A stretch of DNA of 64,000 bases from Escherichia phage vB_EcoM_G4507. Below the pieces are notes generated by a model. The model made no database searches, had not been told where the DNA came from, and saw nothing but the letters and a program-made list of their open reading frames with translations. Below, piece after piece: positions 16,474 to 19,153 of the stretch; position 1 is the first letter of the stretch, and the number at the start of each line of letters is the position of its first letter. The DNA is taken from sequence record NC_054919.1, one strand, 5' to 3'. The position numbers were made by a program, and so were the translations under genes.

Positions 16474-16674
16474 ATGGTACAAAAATTAATGGCACTTGTT
16501 AATGCCATAAAAGGTAATAAAAAACGTATAGCTTTTACTATTTCTGCTATTGTAGGAATTTTACTCTGGAACTTTATTCTATCACCTGTTGCAATTGCGC
16601 ATGGTATTAATATTCCAGTAGTTACTCTTGATACATTTGTAGATTTAGCATTTGCTTTAGTTGGGTTGATTTAA
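16474..16674 (+). CDS. small hydrophobic membrane protein (two predicted TM segments)
   Basis: 66-aa plus-strand ORF with TAAGGAGG RBS 4-5 nt before ATG; sits in 268-nt gap between 56 and 61. Confidence 0.5.
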   Translation: MVQKLMALVNAIKGNKKRIAFTISAIVGILLWNFILSPVAIAHGINIPVVTLDTFVDLAFALVGLI

Positions 16675-17699
16675 ATCTTAGCATATTTAGATAGCCGCAT
16701 TTTAGCCATCAACCCCTGGGCAATATTATTTTTCATATATTCCATAATTTGTTCAGGGGTTGCACCTTCCTTTCTAATCATATCATTGACATCTTTTGAT
16801 TTCCAGGGAGATTTATCCCAAAACATAACCCTTTCTCCTGCATCAACTAATTTAGTCATTCGTTTGATAGTGTCAGGGTGACGAGGTTCATTATCTAAAA
16901 CCCACACTCGTCTATCTTTAAATGGAACAACTTCTAGGTCTAATTGACCACCTGTAATAGCTATACCATTTTCAATAAAAAGTGAATCTATAGGTCCTTC
17001 TAGAACATATACATCACCATCTTTAACTCGTTCAACACCGTAAATTTTTGTTGCCTCAGGATAAGCTTTAATGGTGATATATTTTTGAGGAGCATCTTTC
17101 TTTAATGCACGTCCTTGAAAAGACTCAGCTTTTCCATTAGCATTATAAATTGGAATAACAAGACGAGGCTCAGAAATTTCCTTTTTGTATGTTCCCGGTG
17201 CTATGCTATTAACTAATTTAGGCCATTCGGTTGTAAACCAAAGATATTTCCATTTATCCTTTGGAATACAACGAGCTTTTACATATTTTATAATTGGATG
17301 GTCTTCCGCCAGTTTATCTAATCTAACACATGACGGAAGAGATTTAATTATTTTCTTCTCAGGTTGCTTAGGAAGTTCTTTAGGTTTTTCTACTGGACGA
17401 CTTTTACCTTTTTCTTTTCTTATTTCAAAGATATACTCACGATATAAATCAGGTTCAAACTCCTTTAAATATATTCCGATTGGTGCATGATAATTACAGT
17501 TATAACAATGAATATTTCCTTCATTATTATCACCATAATACCATCCACGAGCTTTATTCTGGTCGGTTTTTGAATCTCCACAAACAGGACATCTAAACCG
17601 CAATTTAAAAGTTGAACTATTATTTACTTGTGTGAATTTAGGTAAATGAGCCAATGCACGATACGCAAACTCATTATCAATCCAAGGTATTGATGACAT
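16671..17699 (-). CDS. 61: DNA primase
   Basis: 342 aa; zinc-ribbon CPVCGDS...CYNC and TOPRIM-like core; matches T4 gp61. Confidence 0.93.
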   Translation of the reverse strand: MSSIPWIDNEFAYRALAHLPKFTQVNNSSTFKLRFRCPVCGDSKTDQNKARGWYYGDNNEGNIHCYNCNYHAPIGIYLKEFEPDLYREYIFEIRKEKGKSRPVEKPKELPKQPEKKIIKSLPSCVRLDKLAEDHPIIKYVKARCIPKDKWKYLWFTTEWPKLVNSIAPGTYKKEISEPRLVIPIYNANGKAESFQGRALKKDAPQKYITIKAYPEATKIYGVERVKDGDVYVLEGPIDSLFIENGIAITGGQLDLEVVPFKDRRVWVLDNEPRHPDTIKRMTKLVDAGERVMFWDKSPWKSKDVNDMIRKEGATPEQIMEYMKNNIAQGLMAKMRLSKYAKI

Positions 17700-17701
17700 T
17701 T

Positions 17702-17866
17702 TTACTCTTCTTTTTCTTTAGATTCCTCTTTTTTCTTTTTAGGAATCTGTTCAGGACCTTTATTTACTACAGCACCTGATGTTGTTCCAGTAGAGATATT
17801 TTCAGGATTACCACCTGAATCTCCAGCGACCATATCTTCTTTAATAAATTCTTTATATGTTTTCAT
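17702..17866 (-). CDS. small protein with capsid-targeting-sequence-like N-terminus (MKTYKEFIKE)
   Basis: 54-aa ORF found by hand; GAGG RBS; TAAtATG junction with upstream gene. Confidence 0.45.
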   Translation of the reverse strand: MKTYKEFIKEDMVAGDSGGNPENISTGTTSGAVVNKGPEQIPKKKKEESKEKEE

Positions 17867-17914
17867 ATTAACCTCTATTCATAAAAGCATTAAAAATTTG
17901 GTCATCAATAGATG
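17866..17914 (-). repeat. direct repeat copy A (~46 bp) spanning gene 3' end and stop/start junction
   Basis: Near-identical to 18225..18270 (3 mismatches). Confidence 0.7.
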
Positions 17915-18224
17915 GCGCAGTAATATTTTCTGCATCATTTAGCAAATCATTAATTTCATCAGATAGCATAACACATGTACCTTTATTTCCTGTAATTGTT
18001 ACTGCACAATTACGAACGTTTTCTTTATCAAATTTTAGGTTAATATTTTCGTAGTGAAAATCCTTTAATGCCGAATATATCTTTAAAATGAAATTGTCTT
18101 TTACTACAATAAACCCAACCTCACTATTAAAACGCGGTTCATGGAAACTGTAATAAACCTTTTCATCTATAAAATCGTATGAAATTTTTTCCATTTTTAA
18201 ATATGAAAATTCAGAACTATACAT
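17868..18224 (-). CDS. hypothetical protein (61.1-like)
   Basis: 118 aa; C-terminus SIDDQIFNAFMNRG shared with next gene. Confidence 0.6.
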   Translation of the reverse strand: MYSSEFSYLKMEKISYDFIDEKVYYSFHEPRFNSEVGFIVVKDNFILKIYSALKDFHYENINLKFDKENVRNCAVTITGNKGTCVMLSDEINDLLNDAENITAPSIDDQIFNAFMNRG

Positions 18225-18270
18225 ATTAACCTTTATTCATAAAAGCATTAAAAATTTGATCGTCAATAGA
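18225..18270 (-). repeat. direct repeat copy B
   Basis: attaacctttattcataaaagcattaaaaatttgatcgtcaataga vs copy A. Confidence 0.7.
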
Positions 18271-18858
18271 AACTTTTACTTTAGGCTGTTCTTCAAACGG
18301 TAATTCATATCCACATATTACAATTTTGTGATCGATACCAAAATACACAGAAGCAATATTATTAATATTATTTTCAGTGAAATCTAAATCAACATCAATA
18401 TCTTTTTGACTAACGCTCAAAGGATAATTAATACGAATAATTCGATTATCTTTAACAAAGATTCCACCGACATACTCTGTGCTGCGTTTAAAGTTTACAC
18501 GTTTCCTAAATGAAAAATATTCAGGTTCTTTATGGGCTCGACTCATAGGGCTTAAAGTGTATTCCGAATATGAAATATCAAATCCTACACCTTCAATATG
18601 AGCCAAAGTGTCATGATTAAACCAATTATAATCGTATGCCAAATCCATTAAATTGTAATATGTGAAAGGCACCGGATTAACATCATATGTTGTACCTTTA
18701 AAATCTGCCCAGGCAACGATTTCGTTATCTTTAACAATTACAAAAATTGTGCCAATAAGATATCCACGGTTATTTTCATCAGGCGTTATATTATAACATT
18801 GTGCATCAGGAAATTTACCGTATTTAAACGGTGGATTTTTGTGCATATAATAAATCAT
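18226..18858 (-). CDS. hypothetical protein (61.2-like)
   Basis: 210 aa; C-terminus SIDDQIFNAFMNKG. Confidence 0.6.
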   Translation of the reverse strand: MIYYMHKNPPFKYGKFPDAQCYNITPDENNRGYLIGTIFVIVKDNEIVAWADFKGTTYDVNPVPFTYYNLMDLAYDYNWFNHDTLAHIEGVGFDISYSEYTLSPMSRAHKEPEYFSFRKRVNFKRSTEYVGGIFVKDNRIIRINYPLSVSQKDIDVDLDFTENNINNIASVYFGIDHKIVICGYELPFEEQPKVKVSIDDQIFNAFMNKG

Positions 18859-18859
18859 A

Positions 18860-19153
18860 TTATTCGCCTGTGATTTCGGTTACGATATTTTTGTTATTAA
18901 AGTTTTTATCGCAATAAAGAACATAATTATACTGCATTACACCACCAGACTTAAGTTGTTTTTGCACTTCAGCTTTCATTTCAGGACGATCGCGCTCAAC
19001 GATATTCATAATATCCGCTTCAATTTGAGTTTCAACTTCAGTCTGATCTGCAGTCATAGACCATTCACACAAATCTTTATCATATCCTGCCATAGCAGGC
19101 TGAGCAGCACAAGAAGCCAAAGTAAAAATTGTAGCAAAAATAAATTTTTTCAT
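18860..19153 (-). CDS. sp: Spackle periplasmic protein
   Basis: 97 aa; signal peptide MKKFIFATIFTLASCAAQPAMAG; matches T4 Sp. Confidence 0.88.
   Translation of the reverse strand: MKKFIFATIFTLASCAAQPAMAGYDKDLCEWSMTADQTEVETQIEADIMNIVERDRPEMKAEVQKQLKSGGVMQYNYVLYCDKNFNNKNIVTEITGE

Follow-up and report, generated by a model that had tools for sequence, protein, structure and literature searches.

In bacteriophage T4, P61 is an identified middle promoter with its start site at position 19122 (Hinton, 2010, Table 1; PMC2988021), and the MotA box of such promoters has the consensus (a/t)(a/t)(a/t)TGCTTtA and lies 12±1 bp from the −10 element (PMC2988021). In phage RB69 the C-terminal half of anti-DarT factor A (AdfA) holds a DarT1-binding determinant, R164H being the change that enables DarT1 binding, and T2 was treated in the same DarTG counter-defence work as naturally lacking an adfA homologue (PMC11257639). 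PeSL elements, described in 2010 (PMC2839356), are mobile regulatory cassettes found in RB49/phi1 that combine an early promoter with a stem-loop terminator. The homology needed for T4 recombination is given as less than 50 bp (Singer, 1982, as cited in PMC2839356). P61 and AdfA are already known, as is the paralogy described below, the GenBank record of RB32 annotating ORF033c as 'similar to gp61.2'. That P61 lies across the conserved AdfA tail and the stop/start junction, that it is duplicated, and that a polymorphism of three haplotypes is bounded by the repeat are points that appear not to have been spelled out before.

The window, which is the whole 64,000-nt stretch of record NC_054919.1 that was analysed, covers the first part of a T4-like (Tequatrovirus) genome. 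The region of interest is its primase–helicase block, in which every gene lies on the minus strand in the order gene 41 helicase, dmd, 61.4 (DUF7279), sp (spackle), a 210-aa gene, a 118-aa gene, 61.1 (54 aa), gene 61 primase and gene 56 dCTPase. Many Tequatrovirus genomes were 99–100% identical to the window over the 1.7 kb in which the repeat lies. The genes concerned are:

16671..17699, minus strand: gene 61 (DNA primase)
17702..17866, minus strand: gene 61.1, 54 aa, with its start codon and ribosome-binding site within repeat copy 1
17868..18224, minus strand: 118-aa gene of the RB32ORF033c type, a one-domain paralogue of the AdfA C-terminal half
18226..18858, minus strand: adfA (T4 gene 61.2, anti-DarT factor A), 210 aa, with an RB69-like N-terminal third

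The gap between genes 56 and 61 contained a 66-aa hydrophobic ORF similar to RB69ORF029w (window 16474–16674, plus strand), which lies on the opposite strand and overlaps the primase stop; at the same place T4 (L005, 847–1935) has the dam methyltransferase gene and a spacer of ~300 bp. A distant T4-like metagenomic phage (L021, 371–991) carried an HNH endonuclease gene between gene 41 and the dmd block. The window adfA was sharply mosaic when its 5′ third (18600–18858) was compared with T4 (L005) and Mosigvirus (L002): the first ~250 nt were highly diverged from T4 and encode an N-terminus (MIYYMHKNPPFKYGKFPDAQ) resembling that of the RB69-group allele, and the remainder was ~95% identical to T4. 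Tequatrovirus adfA has at least three types of N-terminal allele, of 210, 208 and 206 aa. In phage Elenatom (L017, 1168–1790), adfA appeared to be split into ORFs of 98 and 64 aa and is a probable pseudogene, although the DNA of its 3′ tail is intact, as is the 119-aa paralogue that follows.

A repeat search and a mismatch search identified two direct-repeat copies of 49 nt each, identical at 46 of the 49 positions and separated by 358 bp from start to start. Two repeat matches were obtained in none of 100 dinucleotide-preserving shuffles of the window. The copies are:

17864..17912, minus strand: repeat copy 1, running from the 14 last codons of the 118-aa gene through TAA and T to the 61.1 ATG
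18222..18270, minus strand: repeat copy 2, running from the 14 last codons of adfA through TAA and T to the start codon (ATG) of the 118-aa gene

Read on the minus (coding) strand, each copy thus joins the end of one gene to the start codon of the next, with 45 of the 49 nt being coding sequence. The 118-aa ORF ends in …SIDDQIFNAFMNRG and the 210-aa ORF in …SIDDQIFNAFMNKG, the tail common to both proteins being …SIDDQIFNAFMN[R/K]G, and the likeness between the copies ends abruptly at either edge. Copy 1 was identical at 49/49 positions to the T4 61.2/61.1 junction, which carries P61. Copy 2 departed from copy 1 at three positions: two Asp codons were altered synonymously, and the third change, AGA>AAA (R>K), would weaken the GAGG Shine–Dalgarno sequence. 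Junctions of the TAA-N-ATG form are an ordinary T4 type, with 53 on the minus strand. An earlier sequence-only reading had reported a near-identical direct repeat of ~46 bp with three mismatches, made up of a gene 3′ end, TAA, one nucleotide and ATG; the repeat and its content were both borne out, and the coordinates proposed for it (17866–17914 and 18225–18270) designate the same element with an offset of 2–3 nt.

The T4 gene 61.1 occupies positions 18966–19130 (minus strand), and position 19122 is an A located 8 nt inside it. In T4, TAATAT, whose TAA is the stop of 61.2, falls exactly at −12 to −7 of the P61 start, which is 7 nt beyond the −10 element, and TAATGCTTT (Asn-Ala-Phe codons) falls at −34 to −26, all within the repeat. 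Copy 1 matched the T4 P61 coordinates base for base, and the corresponding elements in the window are:

17865..17870, minus strand: −10 element TAATAT of copy 1, spanning the TAA stop, the intervening T and the first two bases of the 61.1 ATG, with a 12-bp spacer to the MotA box
17872..17876, minus strand: putative Shine–Dalgarno sequence AGAGG for 61.1, in the Arg-Gly codons of the tail, as read from the sequence
17883..17892, minus strand: MotA box of copy 1, TAATGCTTTT, matching WWWTGCTTtA at 9/10 positions, in codons F-N-A-F, at −34 to −25
18223..18228, minus strand: −10 element TAATAT of copy 2, with a 12-bp spacer to the box, as in copy 1
18241..18250, minus strand: MotA box of copy 2, the same as in copy 1 (TAATGCTTTT, 9/10)

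By its identity with T4, copy 1 can be taken as P61 with its mapped start, a promoter that the sequence-only reading had overlooked; its +1 is predicted at window 17858, which lies 8 nt within 61.1. As the resulting transcript would lack the 61.1 start codon, the primase gene would be the first complete ORF on it. Both copies possessed a MotA box and a σ70 −10 element (TAnnnT, 12±1 bp), and 27-nt promoter features are annotated on both in the Lutter record. Copy 2 is a candidate active promoter, although its predicted +1 near 18216 is a T, which speaks against activity. A strict MotA/−10 pattern gave 10 minus-strand matches in the window, including both copies, and two on the plus strand, against about two expected per strand. 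The other minus-strand matches had their 5′ bases at 145, 13835, 16463, 30893, 31011, 31641, 36829 and 41250. The motA and asiA genes are assumed to be present in the same genome, given its identity of about 98–99% to T4-group genomes. The T4 promoter Pdam starts at 17617 (PMC2988021, Table 1), 8 nt inside the dam ORF (ATG at 17625), which is the same offset as that of P61 in 61.1.

The 210-aa gene product matched Pfam PF23813 (AdfA) over its full length (E 3e-139). The 118-aa ORF matched profile positions 113–211 with 31.9 bits, above the curated cutoff of 27, and was 37% identical to AdfA residues 111–210 (BLASTP E 6e-11). Since these scores were possibly driven by the common tail, the last 14 residues were removed from both proteins and the comparison was redone; the tail-free sequences still aligned by Smith–Waterman (z = 6.0, 0/2000 shuffles), by BLASTP (E 1.4e-4) and in a profile–profile comparison with hhalign (E 2e-4). 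The two-domain AdfA architecture (~210 aa) was absent from the 118-aa ORF, which has the C-terminal half only. AF2 models of low to moderate confidence likewise gave one β-sheet-plus-helices domain for the 118-aa protein and two such halves for AdfA, the tail forming in both a separate short helix (pLDDT about 50) beyond a low-confidence linker. These comparisons indicate that the 118-aa protein is a truncated paralogue of the AdfA C-terminal half and not an AdfA orthologue. The two adjacent proteins had been described in the sequence-only reading as unrelated, which the PF23813 match and the homology outside the tail contradict; given the paralogy, the common peptide is inherited and conserved, and is no scar on foreign genes.

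The 118-aa gene was found in about 297 phage records and is absent from T4, and short-gene orthologues occupy the same position in Gaprivervirus (46% identity) and in more distant T4-like phages. In T2 (LC348380, L013, 2001–2357) the 118-aa paralogue directly follows sp, so that a half-size AdfA paralogue is present in a phage where it was left unconsidered in the DarTG counter-defence work. One T2 record labels this gene '61.2' and begins it at an internal Met. In LC348380 (L013, 1694–1972) sp itself ends early (…NKNNHR*, compared with …NKNIIAEVVGE* elsewhere), the probable cause being either an error in sequencing or a frameshift within a run of A. The residue matching R164 of RB69 AdfA is Asn in both the window AdfA and the 118-aa paralogue and His in T4, and binding or neutralization of DarT1 by the 118-aa protein cannot be deduced from this residue. 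Comparison of the predicted 118-aa fold (AF2) with PDB structures produced no significant hit (best E 0.07, an acetate kinase sub-domain), a search of the PDB with the AdfA sequence gave no match and word-indexed searches returned close relatives only. When 1.84 billion representatives were searched exhaustively with the profile, just eight proteins were recovered and no outside homologue hinting at function, indicating that the family is confined to T-even-like phages.

The C-terminal peptide S-I-D-D-Q-I-F-N-A-F-M-N-R/K-G was conserved more strongly than any other protein block in the family, being invariant even in two members whose bodies barely align (P0023 and P0025), and the third codon positions of the tail drift in distant family members. 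Mosigvirus had a degraded MotA box (TGCATT), as did one Gaprivervirus copy (TGCCTT), and the TAATATG junction was lost in one distant phage. The degraded boxes and the lost junction point to the peptide as the universal constraint, with the promoter as an overlay of the T4 group and not the reason for conservation. A gene of ~145 aa after sp in Gaprivervirus and Dhakavirus (L003, 1871–2308; L015, 1046–1483; L016, 1405–1845) has this tail at its end (…DDQIFNAFMKRD/NRG), on a body that was not detectably AdfA. The products matched the Pfam AdfA profile in the tail only and by hhalign in an eight-residue motif only (KNPNAQAY), and a tail-less AdfA HMM gave weak matches to them (E 0.005–0.04) at the core motif; the ~145-aa protein is either a member of the family that has diverged very far or an unlike body bearing the tail. 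In VR7 (L015, 1846–2067) and AnYang (L018, 1847–2068) a second DUF7279 (61.4-like) copy was present after the tail junction.

Alignment of the window with T4 and P922 revealed a gap of exactly 358 bp, one repeat period, which was bounded by the repeat; T4 and P922 retain one intact repeat copy with homologous flanks on either side. Three arrangements were common in the annotated phage collection:

Haplotype A, sp-adfA-118-61.1: the window, Lutter, RB32 and Bas39; ~156 records
Haplotype B, sp-adfA-61.1: T4 and P922; ~190 records
Haplotype C, sp-118-61.1: T2 and relatives, with adfA gone and only TAGAGGTTAGTATG left after sp; ~140 records

The number for haplotype A was obtained with junction-spanning queries. 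The numbers for B and C are approximate, as BLAST pieces from haplotype-A genomes were sometimes merged into one place: the query for B gave 271 records, with six of 21 sampled full-coverage rows being two-piece A matches, and the value for C is the 297 records with the 118-aa gene minus those of A, a value with which its own query agrees, having given 189 records that include some joined two-piece matches. The population analysis refers to this collection, IMG/VR contributing only seven loci. The repeat 49-mer occurred at 905 places in 708 records, with at most two per record among the matches listed, and among these 708 records the 118-aa gene with its repeats was not seen at unrelated loci or beside an endonuclease gene. 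T4-type adfA alleles occurred both with and without the 118-aa gene. The tail-TAA-N-ATG junction precedes four kinds of downstream gene in four genera, and accessory genes of the block are evidently reshuffled at the same junction. The recombination role suggested for the repeat in the sequence-only reading, which had proposed looking for deletions between the copies in relatives, was upheld in that the repeat marks the boundaries of the one-period indel and of three common haplotypes. Its description as a portable junction module agrees with the variety of downstream genes, but goes too far in that the module is confined to one locus and to AdfA-family or AdfA-like genes.

The reading that we favour, and consider probable, is that the repeat is a conserved, multifunctional 3′-terminal module of tandem paralogues which recombines by ordinary unequal homologous recombination. 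The 49 nt would have three jobs: to encode the invariant C-terminal peptide, a predicted short helix beyond a flexible linker; to supply the Shine–Dalgarno sequence and TAA-T-ATG junction for the next gene; and to carry the MotA-dependent P61, whose T4 start lies 8 nt within 61.1, so that it would serve primase gene 61. Kept nearly identical in both paralogues, the patch would offer homology to the T4 recombination system, and an unequal crossover between the copies would remove or add exactly one 358-bp unit. As the conserved peptide, ribosome-binding site, stop/start junction and mapped promoter occupy the same 49 bases, recombination inside them would always restore a working junction, leaving tail, promoter and ribosome-binding site intact before 61.1. 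The expected outcome is the polymorphism between adfA plus the 118-aa gene and adfA only, and the T2-type haplotype with the 118-aa gene only would have arisen by a separate deletion of adfA. In this way a common T-even gene-content polymorphism (adfA only, short paralogue only, or both) could be explained by compact anatomy with no new mechanism. The evidence for recombination between the copies is comparative and fits loss as well as gain. The K/R difference was ruled out as proof of direction, since RG is also the end of adfA in Mosigvirus, where the 118-aa gene is missing.

Codon-aligned comparison of the paralogue bodies gave 43% nucleotide identity, with the same codon at nine of 27 identical residues and saturation at synonymous sites. 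The tails were 93% identical and used the same codon at 10 of 12 identical residues (Fisher p = 0.006 compared with the body), an excess that rests on 12 codons only, with T-even codon bias raising the identity to be expected by chance. Inside single Tequatrovirus genomes the tails differed at 1–3 of 49 nt, compared with 5–9 nt between genera, and a two-site synonymous variant (GAC GAT; C..T) was carried by copy 2 in some phages but by copy 1 in others. This pattern suggests recent or ongoing exchange between the tail copies, and gene conversion would then homogenize the tails. The two tails within one Gaprivervirus genome differed at 7–9 of 49 nt, so homogenization is not general.

The copy before the 118-aa gene carried a G>A change in GAGG (window 18230–18234, with equivalents in L014, L024–L029, L003 and L015), at position 38 (R>K) or 41 (G>D), in all 11 haplotype-A loci examined, and the same position-41 change (G>D) occurred independently in the upstream Gaprivervirus copy. 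The copy before 61.1 was nearly invariant across 19 loci, and all B-haplotype copies were of the 61.1 type, which is consistent with crossovers in the first ~37 nt and equally with selection on the 61.1 ribosome-binding site. The GAGG change could mean that the paralogue is translated more weakly, or that a perfect repeat is avoided.

The tail peptide may be a docking helix. In a more far-reaching version of this idea, which we regard as rather unlikely, the invariant helix DDQIFNAFMNRG docks the AdfA family to one partner (a replisome component or a DarT class), the 118-aa protein is an anti-defence factor of different specificity and the module is a selected plug-and-play junction. If this were true, 'adfA-less' phages such as T2 would not really be without AdfA, and anti-defence genes could be swapped before the primase gene with its expression undisturbed.

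It is improbable, in our judgement, that the repeat is merely a passive by-product of purifying selection on the peptide (with the ribosome-binding site and promoter) in ancient paralogues, the differences in gene content having come from unrelated illegitimate deletions. The invariance of the peptide in very distant members while third positions drift between genera would fit such an origin, as would the unhomogenized tails of Gaprivervirus and the adfA-less haplotype of T2, which clearly did not come from recombination between the two copies. However, the adfA-only arrangement differs by exactly one period and retains one perfect copy, whereas an illegitimate deletion would rarely be in register on both sides. 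The synonymous identity of the tails far above that of the bodies, the occurrence of the same two-site polymorphism in either copy and the T4-type adfA alleles with and without the insert also argue against it.

An origin of the 118-aa gene as a foreign cassette, introduced by a mobile element or homing endonuclease with the repeat as target-site duplication or insertion scar, is very doubtful. The gene is accessory and patchily distributed with direct repeats on its flanks, and T-even genomes contain many homing endonucleases, one HNH gene lying nearby in L021. Nevertheless, the insert is a paralogue of its neighbour and has short-gene orthologues at the same position in Gaprivervirus and beyond, no endonuclease or transposase ORF was found in or beside the unit, and 49 bp over conserved codons are unlike a target-site duplication. 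Membership of the PeSL class is scarcely credible and was rejected: a short conserved regulatory sequence does flank a variable ORF at the boundaries of the one-period indel relative to T4, but it lies inside coding sequence and not in an intergenic region, neither copy gave a σ70 −35/−10 match in a promoter scan, a terminator match or a stable stem-loop on either strand (MFE z −1.1 to +1.8), and its promoter is of the MotA-dependent middle class, which leaves only the functional analogy of a homology patch for modular shuffling.

The conserved tail module with unequal recombination between its copies shares with PeSL elements (PMC2839356) the features of short, conserved, promoter-bearing repeats around an accessory ORF that act as patches for homologous recombination and produce precise gene-sized indels, whereas in the window element a middle promoter is embedded in a coding tail, and the element is restricted to one locus. 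With unequal crossing-over and gene conversion in tandem paralogues generally, it has in common two tandem paralogues, a conserved patch, a one-unit copy-number polymorphism and polymorphisms common to the copies. It differs in that the homology patch is just 49 bp, the rest being saturated (43% nucleotide identity), and in that the patch would be held constant by three overlapping functions and not by recent duplication. Within the AdfA/gp61.2 family (PF23813), the upstream gene of the window is a full-length member, whereas the 118-aa ORF has one domain where AdfA has two. Compared with T4 P61, copy 1 is the same in its MotA box, 12-bp spacer, −10 register and downstream genes 61.1 and 61, but in the window the promoter sequence is doubled, with the second, predicted copy 358 bp away before the 118-aa gene.
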